64,000 bases of DNA from Oscillospiraceae bacterium (lineage in GTDB: Bacteria > Bacillota > Clostridia > Oscillospirales > Oscillospiraceae): contig JAFSJZ010000048.1 in NCBI GenBank assembly GCA_017449185.1, positions 2,937-66,936 on the forward strand. The letters run 5' to 3'. The notes below the pieces were generated by a model. That model did not search any database and was not told where the DNA came from. It saw nothing but the letters and a program-made list of their open reading frames with translations. Position numbers and translations under genes: made by a program. Positions 1,293 through 42,195 of the stretch are shown one piece after another (positions within the stretch are counted from its first letter, which is position 1; every line of letters starts with the position of its first letter).

Positions 1293-1730
1293 TCACTCGA
1301 TCGCGAGCAGACGCACGCTCTCCACACCGCCGACGGATTCCAGCGCGGAGACGAGCGAGCTGATCCCGCGGGACACGCCGCCCACGTCGATCGTGAGCGT
1401 GACGCTGGCCTTGCCGAGCACGGGCAGACTCTGCGTGATGGTCAGGATATTCGCGCCCGCTCCGAAGAGGCGCGAGAGCACGGCGCTGAGCACGCCCGGC
1501 TGGTGGTCGAGCATCAGCTCCAGCACGGCCTTGCGGCTGCCGGAGGCCTCTGCGGGTTCGAAGACGTGATCCTTGTATTTATAATACGTGCTGCGCGAGA
1601 TGCCGGCCATGCGCGCGGCTTCGCTGACCTCGCGCACCTTGCCGGACTCGAGCAGGCGGCGGGCTTCGAGCACTTTGGCGTAATAGTCGGGCAGAACGCT
1701 TTTGTGGATGATCAGATACTCTTCGGACAT
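1293..1730 (-). CDS. pheB: UPF0735/PheB-like ACT-domain protein with N-terminal HTH-like segment
   Basis: The internal ATG at 1730 is preceded by GGGAGG. MSEEYLIIHKSVLPDYYAKVLEARRLLESGKV...STYYKYKDHVF... plus a C-terminal ACT domain closely resembles B. subtilis PheB (recalled from memory). Confidence 0.8.
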   Translation of the reverse strand: MSEEYLIIHKSVLPDYYAKVLEARRLLESGKVREVSEAARMAGISRSTYYKYKDHVFEPAEASGSRKAVLELMLDHQPGVLSAVLSRLFGAGANILTITQSLPVLGKASVTLTIDVGGVSRGISSLVSALESVGGVESVRLLAIE

Positions 1731-16815: not shown

Positions 16816-17988
16816 TTATGCCCGGCGCTGCCATCTGTCTGAAATAAGGCCTGCGTACTCCGTCATCGAGAGCATCAGAAGAACAAAAAACACCAGATAG
16901 ACCGGGTACCACCGCATCCCGGCCCAGTCGCTGATCCATCCGAAAATCTTCGGCGCCAGGGTAGAACCCAAATAGGCGCTGGCCATCTGGATGCCCACCA
17001 GGGACTGGGAATTCTCCCGGCCGAAGCGCTCCGGCGTGGAGTGGATGATACTGGGATAGATCGGGGCGCAGCCCAGACCGATGAGCACCAGCGCGAGCTT
17101 GGCCGGCGCGAGCCGCGAGGCCAGCAGCAGGATCAGCACGCCGGCGCCCGCGATACCCTCTCCCAGACGGATCATATTCCGGTCGCCCAGCCTCTCGGCG
17201 ATAAAGCCGGAGGCGCCGCGCCCGGCCGTGATGCCGAGATAGAAAAGCGCGGCCAGCCCGGCGGCCTCGGCGGCGGAGATCCCCTTGACCGAGACCAGCC
17301 AGCTGGCGGCCCACAGTCCGGTGCTGGTCTCCATTCCGCAGTAGCAGAAGAAGGCGATCAGGATGGCCTTCGCGCCCGGCAGAGAGACGGCTTGCTTCAG
17401 CGAGAGCACGTTTCGCTCCTTCTCTTCGTCTTTCCCGCCGGCGTCCCTCTCCCACAGGGGCACGGACAGCGCCAGGATCACAGCCAGCACGATCTGGAAA
17501 ACACCGATGATCCGGTAGCCCGCCGGCCAGCGCGCGCCGCCGCTGAGACACAGGCCCATAATCAGCGGGCCGACGGTCGCGCCGACGCCCCACATGCAGT
17601 GGAGCCAGGACATGTGCTTCGAGCTGTAATGCAGCGCCACATAGTTGTTCAGCGCCGAATCCACCGCGCCCGCGCCGAGCCCGTAAGGGATGCACCACAG
17701 GACAAGCTGGAAATAGGAGCGGGAGAAGGAAAAGCCGAACAGGGCCGCGGCGGTCATCGCCACGGAGACCGTCGTGACACGAACCGTGCCAAAGCGGTGG
17801 ATCACCCGGTCCGCCGCAAGACTGGAGACGATCGTGCAGGCGCTGATGAGCATGGCCAGCGTTCCCGCGCCGGTGATCGTCGAGCCCATCTCCGCGAACA
17901 TGCTGGGCCACGCGCTGCCCAGCAGGGAGTCCGGCAGCCCCAGGGAAATAAAGGCCAGATAGATGACTGCGATGAGAAGTGCCGTCAT
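16816..17988 (-). CDS. MFS transporter
   Basis: 390 aa, about 12 TM segments, with an AADRVIHRFG loop 2-3 motif. Confidence 0.9.
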   Translation of the reverse strand: MTALLIAVIYLAFISLGLPDSLLGSAWPSMFAEMGSTITGAGTLAMLISACTIVSSLAADRVIHRFGTVRVTTVSVAMTAAALFGFSFSRSYFQLVLWCIPYGLGAGAVDSALNNYVALHYSSKHMSWLHCMWGVGATVGPLIMGLCLSGGARWPAGYRIIGVFQIVLAVILALSVPLWERDAGGKDEEKERNVLSLKQAVSLPGAKAILIAFFCYCGMETSTGLWAASWLVSVKGISAAEAAGLAALFYLGITAGRGASGFIAERLGDRNMIRLGEGIAGAGVLILLLASRLAPAKLALVLIGLGCAPIYPSIIHSTPERFGRENSQSLVGIQMASAYLGSTLAPKIFGWISDWAGMRWYPVYLVFFVLLMLSMTEYAGLISDRWQRRA

Positions 17989-18055
17989 GTCGTGCCGCCC
18001 TTCTGCAGAAAATACTGGAACTTATCATAACATAGATCGCGTTTTTGTGGAAGAT

Positions 18056-18445
18056 AAAAAGCGATACGGATCCGCTTCGCGTTTGGTGTCCGGGGGAAAG
18101 ATGCTCCAGCGGGGATTCGCTGCGTTTGCGCCTTGCGGGGGGGAGGAGCATGCTGGGACCGACGCCTTCGGCGACTCGGGTACTTTTCGGCACAGAAAGC
18201 GGGGATTCGAACCCCGGAAGCCCGTCGCAAGGCGACGGACTTCATTTATCCGCTCCGCTCTCGATAAAGACCGCTCCAGCGGATGATTCGCTGCGTTTGC
18301 GCCTTGCGGGGGATCGGCGCAAACCAAGGTATCGACCAGTTTGCGAACTGGTCGATGCACACGCCCCCGGCGTGTGCGATACTGATTCGAATCCCCGCGG
18401 AGCGAAAAAAGGACAAGACCCCACATGGGGGTCTTGCCTTTTTGG
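18056..18445. repeat. Non-coding mosaic of tRNA-Lys-3'-end-like and T-arm-like fragments and GC hairpins
   Basis: Exact matches to the tRNA-Lys locus: 18073..18095 equals 23684..23706 (23 nt), and 18198..18218 equals 23777..23797 (21 nt, T-arm). There is an internal direct repeat of about 38 nt at 18104..18141 and 18274..18312. tttatccgctc occurs at 18246 and also at 23655. Confidence 0.7.
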
Positions 18446-18577
18446 CACATCTGCATAAACTTGATACAATGAACAGATTCTGAGGGCATCTGTTCATTTT
18501 TCCTCCTCAAGAAAGTGCAGACATCAATGGGGATTCACATCGGCGTGACAAAACGGACAAAAGGGACAAAAGAGACC

Positions 18578-19774
18578 TTACCAAACGTCTGCCAGCAGAA
18601 AATCCTCCAGGTGCACGATGCGGACGCCGTTCTCATTCCCCGTCGCAAGGCGATCCAGCGTGACCACATATTTCGGATAGTTGTCCGGGATCTCCAGCAG
18701 ATTGTCCGTCTCGCGGGTAGTGTCCTCCGGAATAGTCACACAAGCCTGAACATAGAGCCGCTCACCGCGCTTTTCCGCCACGAAGTCGATCTCCTTGCTG
18801 CCGAGCTTGCCGATATAGACCTCATAGCTACGGCGGCGCATTTCCAAATAAATGATGTTCTCTAGCGCGGCCGCGCGCATCCGGCCGTTATAACCGCAGA
18901 GCGCGTACTTCAGTGACACATCCGCCAGATAGTACTTTTCCTGCGTTTTCAGGACTGCCTTTCCCTGCAGATCATAGCGCTTGCAGGGGTAGATGACAAA
19001 CGCCTGTTCCAGCCAGCGCAAATAATTATAGATAGTCTCCACCGAGACCGTCCTGTGCTCGCTCTTCAAAAAGGTGCTGATGGAGTTTGCAGAAAAGGTT
19101 TTGCCCATATTCTCGATCACAAAACGCACGACACGGTCAAACAGATCCTGCTTCGAGATACGGTGACGCTTTACGATATCGCGGGATACGACGGTGTGAT
19201 AGATGCCCTCTACGATCTGATACGCGGTCTGGTCATCGTATTCGCCCAGCGCCACAAGCGGAAAACCGCCCATGCGGATATAATCCTCCAGCCGTTCTGA
19301 CCGGCTGCGGTTACTCCCTTTTTTGAATTCCAGATATTCCTGGAAAGAAAGCGTATAGACAGAAATCGGCACACAGCGGCCTGTGAGATAGGTGGAGATC
19401 TCACTGCTCATCAGCTTAGAGTTGGAGCCGGTCACATAAATGTCCACATCGGCGCTTTCAAGCAAGCTGTTGACGGCCTTTTCCCAGCCCTTGATCTCCT
19501 GCACCTCGTCCAGAAGCAAGTAGCAGCGGTCTTTTTGGGTGATTGCGGCTTTCAAGTCCTCGTACATCCGACGCTGGTCGAAGTCATCAAGCTCCATATC
19601 CGTATAGCGCCGGGAAACGATTCTTTCTTCCGCTATTCCTCTGTTGCGCAGTTCATCGTGAAGCATCAGAAAGATGGTTGATTTTCCACACCGGCGTATG
19701 CCGGTAAGGATTTTAACCAACGGGGCGTCCATAAAAGGACGGATCGCCTCCAAATAATCCGGTCGAAGAATCAT
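18578..19774 (-). CDS. AAA+ ATPase (AAA_14 / DUF4143 type)
   Basis: RBS GGAGGTG. Walker A GIRRCGKST, Walker B YLLLDEVQ, and a C-terminal DUF4143-like region. GC is lower than the flanks (by eye). Confidence 0.9.
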   Translation of the reverse strand: MILRPDYLEAIRPFMDAPLVKILTGIRRCGKSTIFLMLHDELRNRGIAEERIVSRRYTDMELDDFDQRRMYEDLKAAITQKDRCYLLLDEVQEIKGWEKAVNSLLESADVDIYVTGSNSKLMSSEISTYLTGRCVPISVYTLSFQEYLEFKKGSNRSRSERLEDYIRMGGFPLVALGEYDDQTAYQIVEGIYHTVVSRDIVKRHRISKQDLFDRVVRFVIENMGKTFSANSISTFLKSEHRTVSVETIYNYLRWLEQAFVIYPCKRYDLQGKAVLKTQEKYYLADVSLKYALCGYNGRMRAAALENIIYLEMRRRSYEVYIGKLGSKEIDFVAEKRGERLYVQACVTIPEDTTRETDNLLEIPDNYPKYVVTLDRLATGNENGVRIVHLEDFLLADVW

Positions 19775-20042
19775 GATCCCACCTCCAACCCGATACTACC
19801 AAAAAAGTCCGTCGAAAGCAAGAGTTTTTCCGGTTGAACTTGAAAAACTTTTCCTTTGCACCAATTTTTTATATTCAACTCCAGAAATAAACCAAACAGG
19901 AAGAAAAGAGTTTTCAGATAATAAGTCTTGTTTTAAGATATACAATATCACTAATTCCTTGACGGCCCTGTATATGGTATGGTAAAGTAAATTTGATACA
20001 ATATTTCCATTTAACGCGCGAAAGAAACGGAGGTCCTCCGGC

Positions 20043-22238
20043 ATGAACATGACAAAACCCATCCCCGGCGCGCGCCGCCCGCAAAAGCTTTTGCGGACGC
20101 TTGCGCTGCTGCTTGTCCTCGTTTTCGCCTCGCAGCTGCTCGCCTGCCCCGTCCACGCGGACGGCGGGCGCGAGATCACGCTGCTGGAGCTCTCCGGCAC
20201 CTGCCGGGTCGAGCGCGGCGGCGAAAGCCTTGCCGCGGAGGAGGGCATGGCCCTCGCCTCCGGCGACACGCTGGTGACGGGCGAGGACGGCAGCCTCCGC
20301 CTGTGCCTCGACGGCGACAAGTTCCTGTATCTCGGCGCCGCCTCCCGCGTGCAGATCACCGCGGAGGGCACGGCCGCGTGCAGCCGCACCGTCGTGCTCG
20401 TCGAGAGCGGCTCCGTCCTGACGGAGGTCAGGCAGAAGCTCTCGGACGATTCGAGCTTTCAGATCGTCAGCTCGAACTCCGTCATGGAGATCCGCGGCAC
20501 CAAGACGTTGACCGAGGTCATCGAGGACCTTGTGACCGGCCACGTCCAGACGAGCAACGCCGTCCTGGAGGGGCAGGTCAAGATCAAGGCCGTCAAGGTC
20601 AAGGCGGACGGGACGGTCGTCTCCGTCGAGCGGGATCTCGGCGCCGGCGAAGGGAACGCCTTCAAATCGGCAAAGGAAGAGCTCGTTTCCAGAGAGGAGA
20701 TGCAGGCCATCGCCGAGACGGGCGCGTCCGTAAGCGGGATCCGCGTGGAGATCGTCTCCGAAGAAGAGGCCGGCGTCGTATTCGACGTGGCGACCTTTGA
20801 CGCCACCTTCCTCGAGAGCGTCAAGAGCATCCTGATCGCGGACGCGGAAGCCGCTGCCGGGGAGAGCCTTTCGGATGAGGAGCTGGACGCGATCAATGCG
20901 CAGATCGACAAAGCGATCAAGTCTCTTGACACGATCCGCGAAGAGTCGCAGGAGGCGGTCAACGCGGCAGCCGAAGCCGGAGCGCAGCCCGAGAACGAGC
21001 CGATGCCGGTCGTTCAGCCGGAGCCCGCGCCGGTCATTCAGCCCGAGCCCGTGCCGGTCATTCAGCCGGTCCCCGTGCCCGCAACGGACGAAACGCAGGA
21101 TGAGGGCACCACGCTCGTAGACGGCGACACCAATCTCATCGACATAGACGACGCCGACGATGAAGACGACAACGCGGGCGACGCCGGAGACGACGAAGGC
21201 GAGACCGAAGAAGAGAGATTGGCCCGCGAGGAAGCGGAACGTCTCGAGGAGGAAGAACAGGAACGTCTCGAGAAAGAAGAACAGGAACGTCTCGAGAAAG
21301 AAGAACAGGAAAAGAAAGAGCGGGAAGCCGCGGAACAGGCGGCCCGCGAGCAGGCGGAACAGGAAGCCCAGCAGGAGCAATCCTCGTCGGGCGGCGGCTC
21401 CGAGCAGGACAGCTCGCCTGACGAGCCCGACCAACCGACCGAGCCCGAGCAGCCCGATGAGCCCGACGAGCCCGACGAACCCGACGAGCCCGACGAGCCC
21501 GACGAGCCCGACGAACCCGACGAACCCGACGAGCCCGACGAACCCAACGAGCCCGATGAGCCCGATGAACCCGACGAGCCCGACGAGCCCGACGAGCCCG
21601 ACGAGCCCGACGAGCCCGACGAACCCGACGAGCCCGACGAGCCCGACGAACCCGACGAGCCCGACGAGCCCGACGAGCCCGACGAGCCCGACGAGCCCGA
21701 CGAGCCCGACGAGCCCGACGAACCCGCGGAGTCTTGTGACGAGCTCGGCCACGACTGGGGCGACTGGGCCGTCACGACCGAGCCCTACGCGGAAACCAAT
21801 GCGGACGGCGCCGTGCTCGCCTGGCACGCCGGCGCAGAGTCCAGGAGCTGCGGCCGCTGCGGCGAAGAGGAGCAGAGGCCGGTCTATGTGGCGCCCGTTC
21901 TCGCGAGCGAAGAATACGAGGACGCGACGAAGCTGCCTATCGACTTCTTCTGGGCCGAGGGCGAGACGGCCCCCGCGGAAGGCATGACGCTGGCGGATCA
22001 CGAATTCCCGTACTGGTGGGCCTCTTCCCCGATGTACAACAACGATCCGGAGACGCGGCTGGATATCCAGGGAGCCGAAATAAGCTGGGAGGACGACAGT
22101 ATCCTTCTGTCCTCGCTGGAGGTCGACGACACGCTTGTGGTCCACATCGCCGTGCCCGAGGAATACCGCGACGCCTTTGAGGACACGGACGTGGCCGTCA
22201 CGCTGATCGAGCGCGGGGCCGTCAACCCTCTGTCCTGA
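20043..22238 (+). CDS. Secreted FecR-domain protein with long acidic low-complexity repeats
   Basis: Signal peptide, FecR-like beta-sandwich region (GDTLVTGEDGSLRLCLDGDKFLYLGAASRV), then E/Q-rich, PVxQPEP and (PDE)n tracts, and a Cys-containing C-terminal domain. Confidence 0.8.
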   Translation: MNMTKPIPGARRPQKLLRTLALLLVLVFASQLLACPVHADGGREITLLELSGTCRVERGGESLAAEEGMALASGDTLVTGEDGSLRLCLDGDKFLYLGAASRVQITAEGTAACSRTVVLVESGSVLTEVRQKLSDDSSFQIVSSNSVMEIRGTKTLTEVIEDLVTGHVQTSNAVLEGQVKIKAVKVKADGTVVSVERDLGAGEGNAFKSAKEELVSREEMQAIAETGASVSGIRVEIVSEEEAGVVFDVATFDATFLESVKSILIADAEAAAGESLSDEELDAINAQIDKAIKSLDTIREESQEAVNAAAEAGAQPENEPMPVVQPEPAPVIQPEPVPVIQPVPVPATDETQDEGTTLVDGDTNLIDIDDADDEDDNAGDAGDDEGETEEERLAREEAERLEEEEQERLEKEEQERLEKEEQEKKEREAAEQAAREQAEQEAQQEQSSSGGGSEQDSSPDEPDQPTEPEQPDEPDEPDEPDEPDEPDEPDEPDEPDEPDEPNEPDEPDEPDEPDEPDEPDEPDEPDEPDEPDEPDEPDEPDEPDEPDEPDEPDEPDEPDEPAESCDELGHDWGDWAVTTEPYAETNADGAVLAWHAGAESRSCGRCGEEEQRPVYVAPVLASEEYEDATKLPIDFFWAEGETAPAEGMTLADHEFPYWWASSPMYNNDPETRLDIQGAEISWEDDSILLSSLEVDDTLVVHIAVPEEYRDAFEDTDVAVTLIERGAVNPLS
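21453..21726 (+). repeat. In-frame 9-bp microsatellite (ccc-gac-gag)n, about 30 units, encoding (Pro-Asp-Glu)n
   Basis: Read directly. The only variation is at synonymous or near-synonymous positions (gac/gat, gag/gaa, and one aac). Confidence 0.95.
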
Positions 22239-22284
22239 CCGGCGCACGCCCCTGTTTGCGCAGAAAAAGCTTCAACACAAACCC

Positions 22285-22620
22285 GTAGGGGAGCAGCTTG
22301 CTGCTCCCTCTTTTTACGCGCACAGCCTTCGCTTCACATTGTAGGGGCGGCCTTTGCGGCCGCCCGTTTCCCCCGTCATTGCGAGGCCCCAACGGGGCCG
22401 CGGCAATCCGTACCCCGTCCCCTCCGTCCCCCCCGTAGGGGCGGCCCTTGCGGCCGCTCGTTTTGCTGCGCTCGCTCGTGAATCGCCCGCCGTTTCCCTC
22501 CCCTCGTCATTGCGAGGAGCGAAGCGACGCGGCAATCCGTATTTCCTTTCCCACGCGGGCCGTCGAGGACGCCATCCCCTACAAATCTAAAACCTAAGCG
22601 GGCGGCCCTTGGGCGCGCTC
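22285..22620. repeat. Cluster of REP/BIME-like elements (GTAG plus GC palindrome) and two cgtcattgcgagg...cggcaatccgta modules
   Basis: GTAGGGG heads at 22285, 22341 and 22435, and an inverted one (cccctac) at 22577..22582. Palindromes ggcggcc/ggccgcc. Modules at 22374..22412 and 22504..22541. Confidence 0.5.
22289..22315 (+). terminator. Intrinsic terminator of the FecR-domain gene
   Basis: gggagcag-cttg-ctgctccc followed by tcttttt. Confidence 0.65.
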
Positions 22621-22676
22621 ACACAGGGATACGGCAGCCGGAACAATAAGCTAAGTATTTCAGGATGAGATGATTT

Positions 22677-23336
22677 ATGGCTATTACAAAAACTGATTTT
22701 ATGCGTGGGATGCAATGTCCCAAAATGCTGTGGCTGGACAAGCACAAACCTGGACTGAAAGTCATTCCTCCTGAAATTCAGGCGCGGCTGGACGCGGGGA
22801 ACGATTTCGGAGATCTGGCAATGGGCATGTTTGGCCCTTATGAAGAAATGACAGTCTATCTTCCAGGAACAACCATTCCTGACAAGGCAGCTATGCTGAA
22901 GCGGACGCAGGATCATTTGGCTGCTGGCACACCAGTAATCTGTGAGGCGGCCTTTTCCAACTATAACAACTATTGTGCCGTTGATATACTTCGGAAGACT
23001 GAGAGCGGCTACGATTTTTACGAAGTCAAAAATGCTCCGGAAGTGTATCCTCAGTTTGTAAAAGATACTGGCTTTCAGTATTACATCATGGCTCGGTGCG
23101 GAATAAACATCGGTAAGATCTTTATCGTTATCCACGGGCCAGACGAGAACAATCCGTTTGTTCCCGTTGAAGTAACAATGCAAGCTAAGAGCTATTACAA
23201 GTGGATCAATGATCACATCTGGGATCTTAATCGCATGCAGAAACAGGCTGAAGAAGTTGATACAGAACCTGGTGAACAATGCTCCACACCATATGAGTGT
23301 TGGTATTATGGGTACTGTCATGGAAGAAAAGAATAA
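22677..23336 (+). CDS. Short PD-(D/E)XK (Cas4/RecB-like, DUF2779-like N-terminus) nuclease-fold protein
   Basis: N-terminal MRGMQCPKMLWLDK, D-x-Y-E-V-K motif (GYDFYEVK), and a C-terminal CSTPYECWYYGYC Cys triad. Clearly AT-richer than the flanks. Confidence 0.6.
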   Translation: MAITKTDFMRGMQCPKMLWLDKHKPGLKVIPPEIQARLDAGNDFGDLAMGMFGPYEEMTVYLPGTTIPDKAAMLKRTQDHLAAGTPVICEAAFSNYNNYCAVDILRKTESGYDFYEVKNAPEVYPQFVKDTGFQYYIMARCGINIGKIFIVIHGPDENNPFVPVEVTMQAKSYYKWINDHIWDLNRMQKQAEEVDTEPGEQCSTPYECWYYGYCHGRKE

Positions 23337-23351
23337 GACTACTCGTAACCT

Positions 23352-23408
23352 GAATACCCATCTCGCATACGAATACCCATTTCGCACACGAATACCCATC
23401 TCGCATAC
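23352..23408 (+). repeat. Three tandem 19-bp direct repeats (gaatacccatctcgcatac), iteron or arm-site-like
   Basis: Copies 1 and 3 are identical and copy 2 has 2 mismatches. An inverted partial copy gtattcgtgtgcga lies at 23495..23508. Confidence 0.9.
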
Positions 23409-23601
23409 GAAATGAAAATGAGTAAAAAGATAAAACAGCTCGTAAATGCAAAGATCCCCGGCAGAATGGCTCTGTCGGGGATCTGCAATTCTTTGTATTC
23501 GTGTGCGAGAAGCAGAAAAGCCTCTTGCTGCATGGGCCTTACTGGCAGGGCGGGGTGCAAAGCAATAGGACCCTAATCGTATCAAGATTAGAGTCCTATT
23601 A

Positions 23602-23726
23602 TGGTGCTCCAGCGGGGATTCGAACCCCGTGACCGCGGCTGCGCCGCGATCACATTTATCCGCTCGCGTTGCTCGCTCAAAAACGCTTCGCGTTTGGTGT
23701 CCGGGGTTCGAGAGTTCCGAGGTATC
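23602..23726 (-). repeat. tRNA-Lys-linked module: inverted T-arm copy, conserved core, hairpin, and direct copy of the tRNA 3' end with CCA
   Basis: 23602..23629 equals 23768..23795 (28 nt direct). 23696..23711 is the exact reverse complement of 23786..23801. The core aaacgcgaagcgtttttgagcga...gcggataaa is shared with 39951..39989. Confidence 0.7.
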
Positions 23727-23767
23727 AAAAAAGATACGGACAGGCCGTTGGCCTGTCCGTATCTTTT
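23727..23767 (-). terminator. Intrinsic terminator of the tRNA cluster
   Basis: 14-bp stem gatacggacaggcc/ggcctgtccgtatc, loop of 3 nt, T6 on the minus strand. Confidence 0.75.
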
Positions 23768-23843
23768 TGGTGCTCCAGCGGGGATTCGAACCCCGGACAC
23801 CCTGCTTAAAAGGCAGGTGCTCTGCCTACTGAGCTACTGGGGC
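23768..23843 (-). tRNA. tRNA-Lys (anticodon UUU), CCA encoded
   Basis: Manual fold of 76 nt. Anticodon arm CCTGC-CTTTTAA-GCAGG, T arm CGGGG-TTCGAAT-CCCCG. The acceptor stem has one C:A mismatch at 3:70. Confidence 0.8.
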
Positions 23844-23846
23844 GGG

Positions 23847-23920
23847 TGGCTGGGATGGCGGGACTCGAACCCACTATATCGGAGTCAAAGTCCGGTGTGT
23901 TACCATTACACTACATCCCA
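23847..23920 (-). tRNA. tRNA-Gln (anticodon UUG), CCA encoded
   Basis: Acceptor TGGGATG/CATCCCA, loop containing CTTTGAC, T arm GTGGG-TTCGAGT-CCCGC, discriminator G. Confidence 0.85.
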
Positions 23921-23970
23921 AAGCTGTTATGAAAGAAACCGGCGGCCGCGGCCGCCGGCCTCTTTTTAAG

Positions 23971-24047
23971 TGGGGTGGGATATGGGGCTCGAACCCACGA
24001 CACCCGGAACCACAATCCGGTGCTCTGCCAACTGAGCTAATCCCACC
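23971..24047 (-). tRNA. tRNA-His (anticodon GUG) with encoded G-1, CCA encoded
   Basis: G-1 opposite C73. Anticodon arm CCGGA-TTGTGGT-TCCGG. T arm with TTCGAGC. Confidence 0.85.
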
Positions 24048-24213
24048 AAATCGTCCTCGCAAGCGCGAGGATTTTCCTTTTCACCGTCTAACCAAATCAA
24101 AGCCCGGCGAAGCGGGTTTGATTTGGAAAAGGAAGAAGGAACTGACGGATGTGCAGTTTTCGCGGCTCTTACGCAAACCGCGGAAACGGAACGCAGTCTG
24201 TTTCTTCTGACGC

Positions 24214-24290
24214 TGGCACGCCAAGAGGGATTCGAACCCCCGACCTATTGCTTAGAAGGCAATTGCTCTATCCTGCTGAGCTATTGGCGC
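24214..24290 (-). tRNA. tRNA-Arg (anticodon UCU), CCA encoded
   Basis: Anticodon arm ATTGC-CTTCTAA-GCAAT, acceptor GCGCCAA/TTGGCGT (G1:U72). Confidence 0.85.
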
Positions 24291-24326
24291 ATATCGATGC
24301 TGCCACTCAACTCCCAAAGCAAATAC

Positions 24327-24400
24327 TGGAGCGGGTGATGGGAATCGAACCCACGTATCCAGCTTGGAAGGCTGGTGTTCTACCATTGAACTACACCCGC
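24327..24400 (-). tRNA. tRNA-Gly (anticodon UCC), CCA encoded
   Basis: Acceptor GCGGGTG/CACCCGC, anticodon arm CCAGC-CTTCCAA-GCTGG. Confidence 0.85.
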
Positions 24401-24706
24401 AGGGGGAGGCGCAACGGGCTCGAACACCTGTCGCCTGTGAGCGCATTTTTTCGGCGCTTTTTGTCTTGTCATCCTTGGCTTGCGCCGGCAAGCCTGCGTC
24501 TTCCGCAACAAAAATCACTCGAAAAACTCCTGCTCACAGGTGCGAAGCAGTTTTCGGGGAGCTGATTCGCGCCTGAGGCGAGGCGCATCCCGCAGGAAAT
24601 ACGTGGGTATATTCAAGGGATGCAACAAAGCATCAGAGGGAATCGGCCAGCGAAAACCGACAGGAGCTCGAGTCCGCTGCGCCTTCTATCCACATTCAGC
24701 CAAGAG

Positions 24707-35597: not shown

Positions 35598-37501
35598 TCG
35601 GCCTTGCGGCAGGTAAAGAGGATGACCTGACGCTCCTTGGCGATCTCGGAGAGAAGCTCCATCGCCTGCTTGAGGCGCGTCTCGTCGAGATTGACCAGCG
35701 CGTCGTCGATGATGAGCGGGCAGGGCTCGCCCTCCGGCAGCGCCAAGCGGCAGACCGCAAGGCGCACCGCGAGATAGAGCAGATCCATCGTTCCGGCGCT
35801 GAGATAGCTGCTGTCGTGTGCCACCGCGTCCGCATCCGTGCGTGTCATGGCTGAGAAGTCGCGGTTGATGAGCACCTGGGAGTAGCGCCCGCCGGTCACG
35901 CGCGACATATACTCCGCCGCCACGCGTCCCAGCTCGGGCGAAAAGCGGCTCTGCAGCTCCTCATCGGCGCTGCGCAGCGTCTCGGCGGCGAGAGAGATGT
36001 CCTCATATTCCTGCTCGAGCTGCGCGCGTTCGGTCTCCATCGTGCCCAGCTCGCTGCGCAGCACCATCGTGTCGCCCATGGCCGAGAGGCGGCCCTTGAG
36101 CGTCGCGATCTGCGCGGAGAGGCGCTCGGCCTCGGCACGGCGGGAATTCAGCTCGCGTCCGAGTCGTGCGGCAGGAGAGCTGCCGGCAACAAAATCGAGA
36201 TCGGCCAGGGCCGTCTCCTCCAGCTTCTCCTGCCGGCGCCGTGCCTGCTCATAGTTCTCGCGCGTTCTGCGTTCGTTGTCCTCGGCGGAGGCGACGGCTG
36301 AGAAGCGCTTGCGATAGTCCTCCAGCGCGGCGGAGAGCTCGGAGGCATGCGAGACGCCGTAGCTTCTGAGGATCTTTCCGCGCTGCTCCCGCGCTTCGTC
36401 CGCGGCCCGGCGCGCCTTGAGATAGAGCGTGAGGAACACGACCGCGCCGACGAGAAAGACGCCCGCGGCGATGATCCACACCAGCGCATCGTAAACCGTA
36501 TAGAGCGTCACGCCCACGGCGGTCAGCAGAAACATAAGGAGCAGCGGCAGCGGCGAGATCTTTTTCTTATACACCGCTTTGAGCTCGGCCATGCGCGTGA
36601 GGTCTTTTCCGGCCTTTTCCTCGACCGCGCCGAGATCGGCGCCGCCGAAAGCGCCCTGCCGCAGCTCGCTGCGGCACTCGGAGAGACGCTCCATCGCGGC
36701 GTCGTGTTCGGCGCTTGCCTCGGCCAGCGCGGTCCGCCCGCGGTTGAGCGTTTCAAGCGATTCCCTGCGCTGGAGTTTGCGGCTCTCGGTCACCGCGTCC
36801 TCAAGACGGGCGCAGTCGGCCTTCGTCTTCTCGAGACGCTGCTCGAGCGCGTCGATGTTCTCCGCCGAGCCGTCCATGTCCTCGAGAAGGCGGCGGGACT
36901 CTTCGATCCGGCTCTCGATATCCGGCAGCATGCCGCGGCGGTTGTAGCGCCGCTTGCGCAGCCAGGCGCGCAGCCGTGCGTCGGCCTCGGTATAGGAGGT
37001 CTCCTCCTCGCCGGTGGAGACGATGGCGTTGATGCGCCTCTCCAGGTCCGGACTGCCAGACACGGCGACGGAGCCCTGCTCGATAAAGGCGCTGCGGCGG
37101 AATACGTCGCGCGTAACGCCCGTGAGCTGTTCGCCCGCGTTTGTGCCGGTCATGCCCTCCACGCGCACGTTTGTGCCGGTGTAGGTGGCGGTGAATTCGC
37201 GCATCGGAGCGCTCTTCATGCGGGTGGTGCGCGTCAGCGTGATGTTGCAGCGGTCGACCGTGAGGTCCATCTGCCCCTCCATCGGGGCGCCGGACCAGGG
37301 GGCATAGCGCTGCTTGTCCGGCAGAAAGCTCCCGCGCGCCCGTTCGCCGGAGTCGACGCCATAGAGCATCGCGCGGATGAAGGCGCACCAGGTGGACTTG
37401 CCGCTCTCGTTCGGGGCGTGGATCACGTTCAACCCGTCATGGAAGCTCAGTGTTTCGTTCTCGAGCTTGCCGAAGGAGGCCGTCAGCTTATTGATCGTCA
37501 T
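35594..37501 (-). CDS. AAA/SMC-like ATPase with central TM hairpin (YhaN/SbcC-like)
   Basis: Start at 37501 (MTINKL...). Walker A APNESGKST, long coiled-coil region interrupted by two TM helices, C-terminal LSAGT...PLIIDDALVNLD. Confidence 0.85.
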   Translation of the reverse strand: MTINKLTASFGKLENETLSFHDGLNVIHAPNESGKSTWCAFIRAMLYGVDSGERARGSFLPDKQRYAPWSGAPMEGQMDLTVDRCNITLTRTTRMKSAPMREFTATYTGTNVRVEGMTGTNAGEQLTGVTRDVFRRSAFIEQGSVAVSGSPDLERRINAIVSTGEEETSYTEADARLRAWLRKRRYNRRGMLPDIESRIEESRRLLEDMDGSAENIDALEQRLEKTKADCARLEDAVTESRKLQRRESLETLNRGRTALAEASAEHDAAMERLSECRSELRQGAFGGADLGAVEEKAGKDLTRMAELKAVYKKKISPLPLLLMFLLTAVGVTLYTVYDALVWIIAAGVFLVGAVVFLTLYLKARRAADEAREQRGKILRSYGVSHASELSAALEDYRKRFSAVASAEDNERRTRENYEQARRRQEKLEETALADLDFVAGSSPAARLGRELNSRRAEAERLSAQIATLKGRLSAMGDTMVLRSELGTMETERAQLEQEYEDISLAAETLRSADEELQSRFSPELGRVAAEYMSRVTGGRYSQVLINRDFSAMTRTDADAVAHDSSYLSAGTMDLLYLAVRLAVCRLALPEGEPCPLIIDDALVNLDETRLKQAMELLSEIAKERQVILFTCRKAD

Positions 37502-38603
37502 GCCGGACCACCTCCTCCCGGTTGTCGATCGCGGCGAGACCCCAGCGCGCGGCCTGCTCGATGTGCAGGCGCTCGGCCTCGCTCGACGCGGCGTCATAGC
37601 GCTCGCGCAGCTTCAGCAGAAACAGCCCGCGCAGCGAATCGTCGCCTGAGCGCTCCCACACGCTCTGGCGCAGGCGCGTCTCGTCGCGCAGCTGCAGCTC
37701 GAAGAAAAACTCGCTTAAATTTTCGCGCAGCCGTCCCAGATCGGGCGGCACATCCGTCTCGCCCGTGAGGACGATGCGGTAGATGTCCCGCACGGTCTCG
37801 TCCGGCAGCATGGTGTGGATGGCCAGCAGCGGTTCGACGCCGGAGACATCCGCCTCCATTACCTCGTAGCGGCGCGAGGCAACCGACACGGTGCGCAGCG
37901 TGCATTCCTCGCCGTCGAGCTCGATGAGGTTGACGGTCTTATCTCCCGTCTCGTCAAAGCCGCGTCCCTCGGGACAGCCCGGCCAGGAATACCAGGTCTT
38001 CCCGGCGCGGAGCAGACCGCCCGTCTTGTGCACGTGGCCGAGCGCGGCGTAGTCGAGCCCGCTTCCGGAGAGATCCTCTTCGCTGATCGGGTCGTAGAGC
38101 GAGTCGCGCACGCCCACCTCGCCGTGCAGGCAGAGGATGTTGTACACGCCCTCCGTCCGCTCGGCGTGAAAGCCCTGCAGCAGAGGAGCGCTCTGCCGCT
38201 CAGTAAAGGCGGCGCCGTACACGCGCATGCCGAGCGCGGCAAGATCGACGCAGCGTATCTCATTTTCGGAAAAGATGTGGATGTTCTCCGGCAGCTTCAG
38301 CCGCGCGTAAGGTGAGCGTTCGGAGTAATAATCGTGGTTGCCCGGCGCGATAAAGACCGGCACGCGGATCTGCCGCAGCGCGCGGATAAGCTCCTCGCCC
38401 GTCTCGTAAAAGGTGTTGTCGCTGTCGAGCAGATCGCCGGAGAAAAGCACGAGGTCGACCTTCTCCTCCGCCGCGAGCAGGGCGATACGGCCGAGCAGAT
38501 CACGCTGTTCGCGCCGACGGACCGTGGCCTTCGCGGCCCCGAGTCCCTCGAAGGGCGAGTCCATGTGCAGATCGGCCGTGTGCAGGATACGCAGCCTGTT
38601 CAC
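37488..38603 (-). CDS. Metallophosphoesterase, SbcD/YhaO-like DNA exonuclease
   Basis: ILHTADLHMDS, GDLLD, GNHD, and LGHVH motifs. It overlaps the downstream ATPase gene by 14 nt. Confidence 0.85.
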   Translation of the reverse strand: MNRLRILHTADLHMDSPFEGLGAAKATVRRREQRDLLGRIALLAAEEKVDLVLFSGDLLDSDNTFYETGEELIRALRQIRVPVFIAPGNHDYYSERSPYARLKLPENIHIFSENEIRCVDLAALGMRVYGAAFTERQSAPLLQGFHAERTEGVYNILCLHGEVGVRDSLYDPISEEDLSGSGLDYAALGHVHKTGGLLRAGKTWYSWPGCPEGRGFDETGDKTVNLIELDGEECTLRTVSVASRRYEVMEADVSGVEPLLAIHTMLPDETVRDIYRIVLTGETDVPPDLGRLRENLSEFFFELQLRDETRLRQSVWERSGDDSLRGLFLLKLRERYDAASSEAERLHIEQAARWGLAAIDNREEVVRHDDQ

Positions 38604-39373
38604 GTCAGCCTCACCCCCTCCGCGGAGAGGCAGCGGCCGGTCTCGGGATCGATCTCAAACAGGCAGCCCTCCAGCTTGACGGGCCCCTTTGCGCTCTCAT
38701 AGCGTCGCGGGGGATCGCCCATGAACTTGCCGATGCTCTGCTCGGGGTCGATGCCGAGCACCGAGTTCGCCGCCCCGGTCATGCCGAGGTCGGTGATGTA
38801 GCCCGTGCCGCCGGGCAGCACCTGCGCGTCGGAGGTCTGCACATGCGTGTGCGTGCCCCATACCGCGCTGGCGCGGCCGTCGAGAAGGAAACCCATCGCG
38901 CGCTTTTCGCTGGTGCCCTCGGCGTGGAAGTCCACCAGAATGATCTTCTCCTTGATCTCCTCCATGAAGCCGTCGGCGATCACGAAGGGGTTGTCGGTGT
39001 TGACGTCCAGCGTGAAGCGGCCCATCAGATTGAGCACGCACACGTCGCCGAAATCGGTCGAATAGACCTCGATGCCCTTGCCGGGGCATTGCGGCGCAAA
39101 GTTGGCCGGGCGCAGGATGCGGCGGCGCTCCTCCAGATAGGGGCGCAGCTCCGTCCGCGTCCAGGTGTGATTGCCCAGCGTCACGACATCCGCGCCGGCG
39201 TGCAGGATCAGGTCGGCCTGCTTGGGCGTGATGCCGACGACGTTGGCGTTCTCGCCGTTGACGACGACAAAGCTGATGCCCATCTCCTTGCGGTAGTCCC
39301 GCAGCTTGTTGTTCAGGAAGGACAGCCCGGGCTCGCCGCACACGTCGCCCACGGCCAGGATCTTTACGCTCAT
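38600..39373 (-). CDS. ymdB: YmdB-family (TIGR00282-type) metallophosphoesterase
   Basis: Start at 39373 with a GGGAGG RBS. MSVKILAVGDVCG..., VVNGENA, GNHTW, DFHAE..SEK, GTHTHVQTSD. Confidence 0.9.
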   Translation of the reverse strand: MSVKILAVGDVCGEPGLSFLNNKLRDYRKEMGISFVVVNGENANVVGITPKQADLILHAGADVVTLGNHTWTRTELRPYLEERRRILRPANFAPQCPGKGIEVYSTDFGDVCVLNLMGRFTLDVNTDNPFVIADGFMEEIKEKIILVDFHAEGTSEKRAMGFLLDGRASAVWGTHTHVQTSDAQVLPGGTGYITDLGMTGAANSVLGIDPEQSIGKFMGDPPRRYESAKGPVKLEGCLFEIDPETGRCLSAEGVRLT

Positions 39374-39550
39374 AGTCTTCGCCTCCCGTAGAGAAACCGA
39401 TTTTTTCCTAATGATATAATAGCACAATCGCCCTGCTGCTATCAATGGACAATCTGTTACGAAACACAAAAAGCGGATGGAACGCCTTTCTCTGCGCATA
39501 ATAAGAAATGAAAAACGCCGCGTATGCAGCGCGGAGAAGGGGAGAAGAAC

Positions 39551-39721
39551 ATGAATAACGACAAAATGAACAGCGAGCTCTATCTGGGCATGGGCGTGGG
39601 GCTGGCCGTCGGCGTGGTCTCGACGCTGCTGATGCGCCCGCGAAGGAAGGACGTCAAGAGCGCCGTCGCCCGTGTGATCGGTGACATGGCGGATTCCGTT
39701 TCGAAAAACATGGGCTGGTAA
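39551..39721 (+). CDS. Small single-TM protein (hypothetical)
   Basis: 56 aa, RBS GAAGGGGAG, one hydrophobic helix (LYLGMGVGLAVGVVSTLLM). No homolog recognised. Confidence 0.4.
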   Translation: MNNDKMNSELYLGMGVGLAVGVVSTLLMRPRRKDVKSAVARVIGDMADSVSKNMGW

Positions 39722-39750
39722 AAGTTTTCGCCCAAAGCGAGAAAAAACTC

Positions 39751-39779
39751 TTGCAATTCTATCCAAGCTGTGCTAATAT
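39751..39779 (+). promoter_or_regulatory. Sigma-A-like promoter of tRNA-Arg(ACG)
   Basis: TTGCAA (39751..39756), 17-nt spacer, TAATAT (39774..39779). Confidence 0.55.
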
Positions 39780-39808
39780 ATGCAAGCTGTCGATGATACA
39801 TCCGACAT

Positions 39809-39885
39809 GCGCCTTTAGCTCAGCTGGATAGAGCGTCTGGCTACGGACCAGAAGGTCAGGGGTTCGAATCCCTTAAGGCGTGCCA
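39809..39885 (+). tRNA. tRNA-Arg (anticodon ACG), CCA encoded
   Basis: Acceptor GCGCCTT/AAGGCGT (G1:U72), anticodon arm TCTGG-CTACGGA-CCAGA, T arm AGGGG-TTCGAAT-CCCTT. Confidence 0.85.
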
Positions 39886-39920
39886 AAACACGGGACACCC
39901 ATCCGGGTGCCCCGTGTTTT
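39886..39920 (+). terminator. Intrinsic terminator after tRNA-Arg(ACG)
   Basis: aaaacacggg(a)cacc-catcc-gggtg(c)cccgtgtttt. Confidence 0.7.
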
Positions 39921-40051
39921 GCATCCGACCTGCGAATTCGAACCCCTGACCTCAAAACGCGGAGCGTTTTTTGAGCGAAGCGGATAAAAGCTGCGCAGCG
40001 TGTCGCAAAGCGACATGCGAAGCAGGGGTTCGAATCCCTTAAGGCGTGCCA
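39921..40051 (+). repeat. tRNA-Arg-linked module: inverted T-arm copy, conserved core, hairpin, and direct copy of the tRNA 3' end with CCA
   Basis: 39936..39951 is the exact reverse complement of 39854..39869. 40023..40051 equals 39857..39885 (29 nt direct). The core aaaacgcggagcgttttttgagcgaagcggataaaag is homologous to the tRNA-Lys module. Confidence 0.7.
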
Positions 40052-40194
40052 AGAAGAACCACCGTTTTTATCAAAAATCGGTGGTTCTTGGTATTTTTTA
40101 GGCGTTTTCTTTTTTCGCGCTTGCTCAAAAATTCAACTTTAATTCAACTCGCTCTCAAAATCATGCCCTTTTCAAGAAGGCATTTTTACACGGA

Positions 40195-41427
40195 TTACTG
40201 TACCGTAAGCATCGCTGTATCAGAGATTAGTTCTTTTCCGTCCAGGCCCATGATGACGCAACGGAATTCATAGCCGTTGAGGCGGCTTTCGGCCAATATG
40301 GTGCACTTAGTCCAATTGCTTCCGCTTGTGACCAATATGGTGTCGGGGATATTGCTCCAGTCAGATGTTCCGGGGGATCTGTACTGCCACTGTATTGTGT
40401 CAGCACCTCGTGCAGTTATATTGAAAACTGCGTTTTCGCCTTCTGCAACAGCAACGCTCTCAGGCTGAACCAAAATGGCGGAAAAGAAAGTTATCGTTGC
40501 CGTCTGACTTGCGAGTTTTTTCCCGTAGGCATTTGTGATCAAACACCGAAGCATCCAATGGTTCATATCCGCCGTTGCATGAATGATCAGTTGGCTCATC
40601 GTTGCCGATGTGGGGCCTGAAAGCTTATACCAGGTGGAGCCGCCGTCCTTGCTGAAGATCCATTGATAGGTCAGGCCTGTTCCCGATGCCTTGACCCTGA
40701 ATTCCAGGGTTCCTCCTCCGGGAAAAAACGTGTTTATACTATCTGGCTGTCTCGTAATATTCGGCAGCACCGTGAGCGTAGCTGGATTTGAGATGGATGA
40801 GCCGTTCTGACTCGTTACGATACAGCGGAACTGATAGTCGTTCATCGTATCACGGGCTTTGATGACCAGATGAGACGTCGCCGCGCTGCTGGCGTTTGTT
40901 AAATTGCTCCAGCTTTCGCCGTTGCTGCTGACCTGCCACTGATAGCGCAGATTCGAGCCCGTGGCACTGACTGTGAAACTTGTTTGGCAGGATTCATAAC
41001 CGCTGTGTGTTTTCGGATGCACGGTGATGCTGGGGCCCGTACCGGTCGTGTCGGACAAAACCGTCAGCGTTGACGCGCTGCTGGTCATCGTGTTCCCTTT
41101 GCTGTCCGATATCCTGCAGCGGAACTTCATGCCATTCATGCTTTCGCTTGCCGTGAGCCGCAAATTGGATGTTTTTGCGCTGGTTGCCCTGGTAATACTG
41201 GCCCAGACTTCGCCGCCGGGGCTTGACTCCCATTGATAGGTCAGCGTTCCGCTTCCGTTTGCGGTAACTGAAAACTGCGCGATGTTGCCTGCAAAAACGC
41301 TTGTTTGCGCAGCCGGCTGGCGGGAGATCGTGATGGAGTCGCTTGCCGCGTCGATGGGAGTCGGAAGAATCAGCAAGTATAACGCCAATAACGCCAACAG
41401 CAGCGCTGTTATTTTACGCAAACGCAT
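40195..41427 (-). CDS. Secreted protein with four tandem Ig-like repeats
   Basis: Signal peptide. Four units of about 90 aa, each with Q-P...F.V.A.G..L.YQW......W..........L.I......N...F.C......G......A.LTV. AT-richer than the flanks. Confidence 0.75.
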   Translation of the reverse strand: MRLRKITALLLALLALYLLILPTPIDAASDSITISRQPAAQTSVFAGNIAQFSVTANGSGTLTYQWESSPGGEVWASITRATSAKTSNLRLTASESMNGMKFRCRISDSKGNTMTSSASTLTVLSDTTGTGPSITVHPKTHSGYESCQTSFTVSATGSNLRYQWQVSSNGESWSNLTNASSAATSHLVIKARDTMNDYQFRCIVTSQNGSSISNPATLTVLPNITRQPDSINTFFPGGGTLEFRVKASGTGLTYQWIFSKDGGSTWYKLSGPTSATMSQLIIHATADMNHWMLRCLITNAYGKKLASQTATITFFSAILVQPESVAVAEGENAVFNITARGADTIQWQYRSPGTSDWSNIPDTILVTSGSNWTKCTILAESRLNGYEFRCVIMGLDGKELISDTAMLTVQ

Positions 41428-41852
41428 TTTTCCTCCTTCTTTTCCGTGGCCGAAACGGTCTTCTCGCCTGAGCGCTTCGTTTATTGAGACACATCAATTG
41501 AATAACTATGTTATATATTTTTGCATTTTTTGATGCGGATGTCAATGAGAAATCAATAGTTGCCATGGAAAGACCGTGTATGACTACAATACATCTTGGA
41601 CACATGCTCCCCAAAAAGAAAGTGCAGGAAGATGCGAAATCGGTTATTGTTGAGCTGAAGCAACAACGAAGCCAAAAGGAGCATAGCCTATATTTCTGTA
41701 AGCTATGCCGCTTTTCTTAACGAGTTAAATGCTCCCTAATCCGCACGAGCAAAATGGGTCGGGCTTTTTGGCACTTCTTGCAGAGCTTTTCGTTTTGCCC
41801 CCTGACCATAAACCGGTCGGTACGCGTTTTTTGCTTTTCAAGCGGCAGACGC

Positions 41853-41881
41853 TTGACTTTCTCCTGCCTATCTGTTATATT
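41853..41881 (+). promoter_or_regulatory. Sigma-A-like promoter upstream of leader ORF/MFS gene
   Basis: TTGACT (41853..41858), 17-nt spacer, TATATT (41876..41881). Confidence 0.5.
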
Positions 41882-41918
41882 TTCCCTGCTAATTCCAAAG
41901 AAAGAGAGGTGATCATAC

Positions 41919-41990
41919 ATGCGCAATAACAACAGAAAAAACGCATTCGAATTTTATATGATGACCTCGGTTCATGCCTGTCAGTCCTGA
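41919..41990 (+). CDS. Candidate 23-aa leader peptide MRNNNRKNAFEFYMMTSVHACQS
   Basis: RBS GAGAGG lies 9 nt upstream of the ATG. The ORF sits between a promoter and a terminator/antiterminator. It is too short for the ORF track. Confidence 0.4.
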   Translation: MRNNNRKNAFEFYMMTSVHACQS

Positions 41991-42013
41991 AGCGACGATG
42001 ATCTGACGACTGG

Positions 42014-42089
42014 ACCGTGGCGTTGCCGTCACGGTATTTTTATGTCTTCTGTCAAACCGTGACCGGATGTCACGGTTTTTTGCTTTTTT
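42014..42089 (+). promoter_or_regulatory. Transcription attenuator (two terminator hairpins with a mutually exclusive antiterminator)
   Basis: Hairpin 1 is 42014..42035 (9 bp) plus atttttat. Hairpin 2 is 42056..42076 (8 bp) plus T-run. GTCACGGT (42028..42035) can pair with ACCGTGAC (42056..42063) instead. Confidence 0.55.
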
Positions 42090-42195
42090 ACGCGGGCCTG
42101 TCACCCTGTCGGCCCGACCGGGGTCAGAAAAACATGTTTAGAAAAGAACGAACAACGAATCAGTATAAAGGAAAACCCTTCAGCGAGGAAACACC

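Follow-up and report, generated by a model that had tools for sequence, protein, structure and literature searches.

The question raised by this locus is what kind of module it is that stands behind a tRNA gene and carries two pieces of that gene, one inverted and one direct, around a short stretch of other sequence. The window, by which we mean the whole stretch of 64,000 nucleotides of Oscillospiraceae DNA that was analysed, contains on its plus strand a tRNA-Arg(ACG) gene with an encoded CCA end (39809-39885), which is called by ARAGORN, scores 65.3 bits in the Rfam tRNA family and is the source of both pieces, hereafter called arms. Immediately behind it the sequence forms a terminator-like hairpin, T1 (39886-39920), with a 13-bp stem that holds one A.C mismatch and is followed by TTTT. 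In the comparison of loci, T1 hairpins at related sites are homologous and show compensatory changes, and a variable spacer of 15 nt (39921-39935) separates T1 from the left arm (39936-39952), an exact inverted copy, 17 nt long, of tRNA nucleotides 44-60 (39853-39869). The left arm is followed by hairpin A (39954-39972), which consists of AAAACGC-GGA-GCGTTTT at 39954-39970 and two further T residues, by the conserved and unpaired linker GAGCGAAGCGGATAAAAG (39973-39990), and by the composite hairpin B (39991-40023), which is variable in sequence, conserved in structure and abuts the right arm. Hairpin A and the linker make up a 30-nt core (39955-39984). Hairpin B of the Arg copy is atypical and contains GACATGCG, which is present also at the tRNA leader/5' end. 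The right arm (40024-40051) is a 28-nt direct copy of tRNA nucleotides 49-76 including the CCA; counting C40023, positions 40023-40051 equal 39857-39885 exactly over 29 nt, and the match ends at 30 nt. For a 27-nt version of this repeat the chance expectation was 0.00 in 100 shuffles. The last part is hairpin T2 (40053-40095), unlike T1, in which an 11-bp stem, aagaaccaccg/cggtggttctt (40053-40089), precedes a T run.

An earlier note, made from the letters of the window, had described most of these parts. The tRNA gene, the hairpin of the core, the exact 29-nt direct copy (28 nt of which are tRNA-derived) and the hairpin behind it are all where it had placed them. Its inverted piece is indeed an exact inversion, but 17 nt long rather than 16, and what it had called a terminator at 39886-39920 does have the hairpin and the TTTT, but is not called by a simple terminator scan. 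It had also remarked that the DNA becomes AT-richer beyond the module, and this holds: the GC content drops from 0.64 (36000-39800) to 0.485 (40052-42195), and the similarity of the window to five related loci (L004, L012, L020, L027 and L034) ends at 40051-40056, i.e. 0-5 nt past the direct copy. Conserved synteny with the relatives thus ends exactly at the right arm. By GC content and genome comparison, the AT-richer DNA (40096-42195) is variable and absent from related genomes; its sole gene, on the minus strand (40195-41427), encodes a secreted Ig/PKD-repeat protein, and no further tRNA-Arg fragment was found at its far end (to 42195).

The 137 nt bracketed by the direct repeat (39886-40022) contain no plausible ORF and no recombinase gene, and no sigma-70-like promoter was found within the unit. 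A tRNA-like fold was rejected by inspection, there being no 5' acceptor strand able to pair with the copied 3' strand of the tRNA. The unit is predicted to fold better than its shuffled versions (39932-40051, z = -5.0; none of 200 shuffles folds as well). In the Arg unit the 5' 12 nt of the left arm pair with the start of the direct copy.

A second unit of the same kind lies on the minus strand of the window (23602-23843), as identified by ARAGORN and from its sequence, behind tRNA-Lys(TTT) (23768-23843). It has the same order of parts as the Arg unit, i.e. T1, left arm, core, hairpin B and direct copy, with arms that match tRNA-Lys: its direct copy (23602-23629) is identical to 23768-23795 at 28 of 28 positions, its left arm spans 23696-23711 and its core 23673-23695, the linker carries an extra GCGAGC-type unit, and its T1 ends in six T. 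As predicted for single strands, the left arm pairs in both units with the first 10-13 nt of the direct copy and closes a junction that encloses hairpin A and hairpin B. Behind the Lys unit there is a 5.4-kb islet, at whose far end degenerate cassette pieces are found on the same strand (18050-18440), comprising a cassette of another type (type D, see below), a partial unit of the same type as the two described here (type A, see below) made of GAGCGGAGCGGATAAATG, a hairpin and GGGGTTCGAATCCCCGCT, and an additional fragment of left arm and core.

Both units belong to one family. The feature behind tRNA-Arg is one copy of what we call type A, a non-coding cassette of 110-140 bp that is placed behind the last tRNA gene of an operon, in tRNA sense. 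A scan for the core pattern, with one genome per species, gave 33 loci, 8 of which were chance matches and 25 true modules in 20 genomes, Candidatus Limivicinus being among the hosts; a scan of metagenomes, chiefly rumen data sets, added about 45 copies. Together the scans yielded 66 copies with both arms, 61 of them distinct, and among the copies found the hosts were exclusively Oscillospiraceae/Clostridiales assemblies from rumen and gut. In 52 copies a tRNA gene lies upstream on the same strand (Lys-TTT in 30, Arg-ACG in 19 and Ala in 3), and in none does it lie on the opposite strand. The suggestion of the earlier note that the module be sought at other tRNAs proved fruitful, as it also stands behind tRNA-Ala(GGC), tRNA-Ala(CGC) and further tRNA-Ala-like 3' ends, the last of these closing copies at loci L082, L118, L132 and L137. 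Modules do occur with the variable loops AGGTC and GTGTC that had been singled out for this search, but also with other loops (L082 and L118). The note had argued for a common mechanism of origin of the Arg and Lys modules, which these further copies behind several tRNAs support. Against this it had set the case that no other copies exist and that both loci go back to one ancestral duplication; since many copies were found behind several tRNAs, this is not the situation encountered.

The spacing of the cassette is fixed. From the tRNA end to the core, 42 of 43 first cassettes measure 68-76 nt, a distance that the variable spacer maintains across the family, and whole units measure 156-173 nt. 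The inverted and direct pieces take the same tRNA positions not only in the Arg and Lys units, as had been noticed before, but in all copies, and they track the local variants of the T-stem and T-loop. Thus, the direct copy is identical to the local tRNA over 28 of 28 nt in 27 of 42 copies and over 25-27 nt in 8 more, and the left arms follow the T-stem CAGGG in L017 and the T-loop TTCAA in L118, L132 and L137. The left arm also reaches into the variable loop, and for that part the only pairing partner is the tRNA itself, none being present within the cassette; in several Lys copies this arm contains one extra-helical A. The core consensus, AAACGCG(A/G)AGCGTTTTT(T)GAGCGAAGCGGA, is almost invariant over the family, as is hairpin A, whose loop is GAA or GGA, while the flanking genes at type A loci are only 73-88% identical to those of the window. 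Hairpin B behaves differently, with 56 distinct sequences; it nearly always stands beside the right arm, its stem has a median length of 12 bp and its fold a median z of -4.95. These values come from folds of individual sequences, the alignment-based approach (MAFFT, then RNAalifold) having misaligned the variable hairpin and recovered helix fragments only. In these predicted folds the arms pair and close a three-helix structure that is kept while the sequence of the hairpin drifts. The family is sizeable and previously unannotated, and the finding is real and non-random and has a clear known analogue. It should be noted that cassettes at orthologous loci, in species about 20% apart in DNA, could be old and vertically inherited, a point that bears against the reading we favour below.

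The cassette behaves as an exchangeable unit. By following the neighbouring YmdB gene through related contigs, we found tRNA-Arg(ACG) sites that are empty, having their own terminator and nothing more (L035-L041 and L073, in other species), as well as occupied sites in the window, L004, L027, L034 and others. Occupied and empty sites thus exist among relatives, between species only, with the tRNA intact in both. Moreover, the same tRNA is followed by type D in L054 and by type C in L057. Locus L057 agrees with L034, which is occupied by type A, in its tRNA and in the flank downstream, CCTATTCATTACACTAAAGATGCC..., and the T1 hairpins of the two are homologous; type C and type A are therefore alternatives at one site. 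The interiors of types B, C and D are unrelated, yet their design is the same, with a left arm that inverts part of the T-arm (nt 44-54 or 55-63) and a direct copy that runs to the CCA; the stem formed by the two arms corresponds to tRNA nt 49-60 in type A, 44-54 in type B and 55-63 in types C and D. Cassettes of different types are combined in arrays (L013, L027 and L029) and units are repeated in tandem (L002, L012, L029, L089 and L121). In L139 one and the same segment is both the right arm of a type A cassette and the left arm of a type D interior. An exact duplication in L020, about 70 bp long, spans the direct copy and T1, and in type B of L013 and L018 the inverted 3' half of the tRNA directly extends the terminator stem. 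Loci L002 and L032, which lie behind different tRNAs of one genome (SIG466), have private features in common, and gene conversion between cassettes within one genome probably contributes. Presence and absence at orthologous tRNAs, replacement by unrelated cassettes and tandem amplification are hence all observed; for type A itself, no circular junction and no presence/absence pair within one species was seen.

The same tRNA 3' ends are also visited by islands of the classical kind. In one species free of cassettes, the DNA after tRNA-Arg varies from strain to strain, and a comparison of L072 with L073 reveals a 2.8-kb element with a tyrosine integrase and its own terminator, the repeat of which is 45 nt long and starts in the anticodon loop. 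In L143 and L139, integrase elements have been inserted upstream of pre-existing cassettes. The tRNA-Arg of locus L060 is chimeric, its 3' end being foreign, a sign of heterologous integration in its T-arm region. Since one crossover within the T-arm would leave a chimeric tRNA of this kind, it is insufficient; on its own it fails to match the left arm and the tRNA-side repeat to a new tRNA, which also bears against our preferred reading.

We searched for a partner that might move the cassettes. No recombinase, transposase or other gene was consistently linked to them in the loci examined, no integron integrase was seen there, and an autonomous version sharing their ends was not found. Genes for large serine recombinases whose 3' ends run into tRNA-Ala fragments lie next to cassettes in L018, L025 and L059; as these genes are parts of separate mobilisable elements or of prophages that have entered the array, and the window has none of them, they were rejected as partners. 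The genes that recur as neighbours were likewise set aside, being housekeeping genes or lipoprotein/solute-binding cargo without a Pfam match. Derivation of type A from the P' arm of the L072 element was not upheld, the similarity not being significant (83, 65 and 21 of 500 shuffles score as well). A phage origin was also rejected: in IMG/VR the type A core pattern gave one chance match and the type D core none, and the one match to the type C core lies just outside the serine-recombinase end of a prophage. A literature search on GCGAAGC with tRNA and on miniature integrative elements found nothing relevant.

The single strand under selection could be DNA or read-through RNA. The terminal loops are CGAAG (70), CGGAG (19) and CGCAG (17), and C-GNA-G mini-hairpins, the subject of work by Hirao et al. 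in 1992-94, are reportedly extremely stable in DNA and not in RNA. Two observations favour a folded single strand as such: hairpin B covaries in structure, and the tRNA-sense strand folds better than its complement, with DNA parameters in 56 of 61 copies and with RNA parameters in 45. The G.T/G.U pairs amount to 3-4% on either strand (63 of 1958 versus 86 of 1992), an absence of asymmetry that gives no basis for choosing the strand. Because G.T pairs are nearly absent and because of the C-GNA-G triloops, we lean towards a selected single strand of DNA rather than a read-through RNA.

Based on our current knowledge, we tentatively favour, at somewhat less than an even chance, the view that type A is a non-autonomous, exchangeable DNA cassette that spreads via its tRNA-identical repeat and is selected for its folded single strand. 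Such a cassette would be non-coding and would not move by itself; it would be gained, lost and duplicated by recombination through the direct repeat, whether of the Campbell type, site-specific within the T-arm region or by homologous exchange, and a factor supplied in trans may recognise the invariant core together with the fold. The right arm would be the displaced 3' end of the tRNA, behind which cassettes and islands, e.g. the AT-rich islet, could accumulate while the real tRNA stays intact. A wider proposal, which we regard as rather unlikely, is that types A-D and the E. coli RtT element form one unrecognised class of structure-defined mobile cassettes, the arms of which would be re-templated from the T-arm of the target, and which would move as folded single strands via a recombinase or replication-coupled copying, building integron-like arrays and landing pads for islands.

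Other readings compete with this one. One of them, possible but doubtful, is that the cassette belongs with the RNA elements of the rtT type: transcription running on from the very strong tRNA promoter would produce a transcript in which the tRNA-like 3' end, made of T-arm, acceptor strand and CCA, is used by the tRNA 3'-processing enzymes to free a stable folded sRNA, whose linker and anti-T-arm left arm may act in trans on the tRNA, a tRNA-binding protein or the stringent response, the polymorphism at the DNA level being the ordinary gain and loss of an RNA gene. The invariable tRNA sense of the cassette agrees with this, as do the near-invariant unpaired linker between the helices, the drift of hairpin B in sequence while its structure is kept, and the better fold of the tRNA-sense strand in 45 of 61 copies with RNA parameters. 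T1 of the Arg copy, with four T and one mismatch, is weak enough to make read-through plausible; however, a terminator-like hairpin precedes almost every cassette, with six T in the Lys copy, and the cassette has no promoter of its own. The existence of four unrelated cores (types A-D) with only the arm design in common also speaks against an RNA, as do triloops that are said to be stable in DNA and not in RNA, the failure to match any Rfam family even at E<=10, and the rarity of G.U pairs (3-4%, equal on both strands), unlike in most structured RNAs. In favour of it again, E. coli RtT, which has the same architecture, is annotated as an sRNA and is reported, in a passage of PMC3318445, to be processed from the tyrT transcript. 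We consider it unlikely that the cassette is instead a folded single-stranded recombination site like an integron attC or the attP(+) of CTX phage, in which the annealed arms of the tRNA-sense strand would rebuild the duplex of the T-arm of the tRNA gene, a tyrosine recombinase would swap one strand with the tRNA gene or with an earlier right arm, and replication would resolve the product into integron-like cassette arrays behind the tRNA. The stem formed by the arms reproduces T-arm nucleotides in types A-D, the mixed-type arrays have only arms in common and an arm is shared in L139; the extra-helical A in the left arm of several Lys copies, the almost purely Watson-Crick stems, the DNA-stable GNA triloops and the better fold of the tRNA-sense strand all fit such a site. 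However, no linked integrase was found, the tyrosine integrases seen here belonging to ordinary islands with crossovers in the anticodon loop; the paired region has only 9-13 bp, about half a recombinase site, the variable-loop part of the left arm pairs with nothing inside the cassette, and the intact tRNA and T1 on the left are left unexplained.

Two further readings would make the cassette a relic or an accident. It is very unlikely to be a scar, i.e. the fused att arms of integrase-borne islands at the tRNA 3' end whose genes were later lost. Classical islands at the same tRNAs do give the same outer pattern (L072 versus L073; L143 and L139), in which the tRNA has a terminator brought by the element, the element follows and the 3' part of the tRNA is repeated directly behind it; the chimeric tRNA-Arg of L060 would come from heterologous integration, and degenerate pieces are scattered over 18050-18440. 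But scars should vary in size and decay, and yet the core is near-invariant across species about 20% apart in their genes, the spacing is fixed and the structure of hairpin B is kept; moreover, the P' arm of the one complete element examined has no significant similarity to type A, and the repeat of the islands seen is 45 nt long and begins in the anticodon loop instead of covering nt 49-76. Highly improbable, in our estimate, is a functionless by-product of replication errors at T-arm and terminator hairpins, where template switching would extend palindromes, and of unequal crossing-over, in which gene conversion would keep the likeness to the tRNA. The type B cassettes in which the inverted tRNA 3' half extends the terminator stem (L013 and L018) could have arisen in this way, tandem arrays are common, and the private features common to the cassettes of SIG466 (L002 and L032) fit gene conversion; random errors, however, would not put one 30-nt core behind five or more different tRNA genes of many species and keep it unchanged.

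The occurrence of the same design in unrelated bacteria and at several tRNAs turns a curiosity of one species into a class that can be studied comparatively. It also bears on the role of tRNA 3' ends as hot spots for islands, as the variable DNA here starts at the copy of a tRNA end rather than at the gene. At a practical level, these repeats break metagenome assemblies at tRNA T-arms, and they can pass for island boundaries or tRNA pseudogenes.

Several known systems resemble type A in part. Among the tRNA att sites of tyrosine integrases, Williams is said to have distinguished, in 2002, a T-loop sublocation class. As at att sites that target tRNAs, a direct repeat of the tRNA 3' end brackets the type A insert, and the insert brings a terminator; as at those of the T-loop type, the repeat starts at the 5' T-stem. 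The locus, too, is an island hot spot. The 137-nt insert differs from integrase elements, however, in having no genes, an inverted tRNA piece and a conserved structured core, and the islands found at these tRNAs have, unlike type A, a 45-nt repeat from the anticodon loop. Like integron attC sites and the CTX attP(+), type A forms an imperfect hairpin of roughly 100 nt whose basal stem is conserved and whose interior varies, with one base bulged out in some cases, and, compared by anatomy, its arrays resemble those of integrons in that unrelated cassettes are joined by folded sites. In contrast to these systems, there are no cassette genes and no IntI/Xer partner was found, and the basal stem, unlike that of attC, is a copy of the tRNA T-arm that changes with the tRNA. 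MITEs and REP/BIME elements are, like type A, small, non-coding, hairpin-rich and non-autonomous, with inverted arms of 9-13 bp in type A. Type A, however, is confined to positions behind tRNA genes, with two to three loci in a genome, and shows no short target-site duplication of the kind that defines a MITE; its arms copy the target rather than a transposase-binding end, and no RAYT or other transposase is linked to it.

The closest analogue is RtT. The repeats of E. coli tyrT have been known since 1978, and RtT has long been an Rfam family (RF00391; gene rttR); we know of no accepted function or origin for it. In the E. coli tyrT-tyrV region, each tRNA-Tyr is followed by a 59-nt spacer and a 22-nt inverted copy of the T-arm region (86%). 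Next come GC-rich hairpins whose loops are of the C-GNA-G kind, GCGAAGC and GCGCAGC among them, and the unit, which has a period of 178 bp, closes with 19 nt that directly repeat the tRNA 3' end, CCA included. In the Rfam consensus structure the closing helix is formed by the left arm and the direct copy. E. coli genomes contain 0-14 copies of RtT, with 685 of 5426 having none. According to passages in PMC3318445, which refer to Bosl and Kersten 1991, RtT is processed from the tyrT transcript into a stable RNA; an influence on the stringent response is mentioned there and in a passage of bioRxiv 10.1101/2024.07.17.603846, with the same reference.

As with RtT, a tRNA gene immediately precedes type A on the same strand, and its 3' end, CCA included, is repeated directly at the end of the unit; the inverted T-arm copy pairs with this repeat and encloses internal hairpins, and tandem arrays are formed, the copy number of RtT differing between strains. 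In sequence only a short stretch is similar, GAGCGAAGCGAGAAAACG of RtT and GAGCGAAGCGGAAAAAAG of type A; the z value reaches 6.9 for L027, but the likeness is weak in the two copies of the window (4.2 for Arg and 1.5 for Lys). The two differ in phylum and in the tRNAs concerned, which for type A are Arg, Lys and Ala, and in the pairing of the arms, which involves nt 49-60 in type A and the 3' T-stem and acceptor strand in RtT; unlike RtT, type A has a terminator-like hairpin between the tRNA and the cassette, and no tpr-like ORF. The RF00391 model scores the E. coli units at 133-138 bits (gathering threshold, 45 bits), but does not match 39700-40250 or 17900-24500, even at E<=10 or E<=5, and an Rfam scan of the whole window gave only tRNAs at gathering scores, permissive scans of both module regions returning noise. 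As the architecture is the same but the model is blind to the window, we file type A as RtT-like rather than as a member of RF00391, and it probably works like RtT, as a variant of that design.

Acceptor-stem features of the two cassette-bearing tRNA genes in the window are kept in related loci, namely a C3:A70 mismatch in tRNA-Lys(TTT) (23768-23843, minus strand) and a G1.U72 wobble in tRNA-Arg(ACG) (39809-39885, plus strand). Behind the tRNA-Lys cassette lies an islet of 5.4 kb and lower GC content (18440-23600), which encodes an AAA_14/DUF4143 ATPase (18578-19774, minus strand), a FecR-domain protein of 731 aa (20043-22238, plus strand), which contains a long, acidic PDE/PEP repeat, and a 219-aa protein without a Pfam match (22677-23336, plus strand). 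The first ~120 nt of this islet are shared with locus L019, and no recombinase is encoded between 18440 and 23600. At a third tRNA locus, a tyrosine integrase gene truncated by the window start (1-972, plus strand; Phage_integrase, E 5e-22) adjoins tRNA-Gln(CTG) (1131-1204, minus strand), and this is probably the terminus of an integrated element; the type A cassette, the 110-140-bp non-coding unit found behind tRNA genes, is absent at this locus.

Large serine recombinase genes are present at L018 (2970-6779, minus strand), L025 (5-1093) and L059 (~300-900), and at all three loci a tRNA-Ala 3' fragment and its terminator supply the final codons of the recombinase gene. At L018 the gene is accompanied by those for an HTH protein and a MobA/MobL relaxase, and together they form a mobilisable element inserted in a cassette array, that is, in tandem or mixed cassettes behind one tRNA gene.

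At L060 (~2170-2410, minus strand), the 3' end of tRNA-Arg(ACG) is foreign and non-complementary (...CCCTTA joined to GGGTCCGCCA), and six GTCAAACGC/GCGTTTGAC-type repeats resembling arm-type binding sites come after the gene. The tRNA is a chimera, produced by heterologous integration or possibly during assembly. At L012 (~1430-1470, minus strand), nt 49-76 of tRNA-Arg come immediately after its promoter and leader, and two cassettes lie 3' of the shortened gene. The absence of nt 1-48 reflects either a genuine 5' deletion or an artefact of MAG assembly. Five metagenome contigs of the cassette-bearing lineage (L042, L062, L065, L066 and L061) terminate within the T-arm of tRNA-Arg (nt 49-53) or at the 3' end of this tRNA, where breaks would be expected if the repeated arms disrupt short-read assemblies.

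Finally, the type A core has 20 nt in common with an unrelated repeat of soil bacteria (GCGTTTTT(C)GAGCGAAGCGGATACCGGTTCGCGTGAAGAAAACGCGTCAAAACAA...), found in soil metagenomes at L076, L081, L087, L088, L094, L097, L100, L101, L104, L109, L119, L120, L127, L130 (two inverted copies) and L134; the motif common to both, possibly by coincidence, is GAGCGAAGCGGA.
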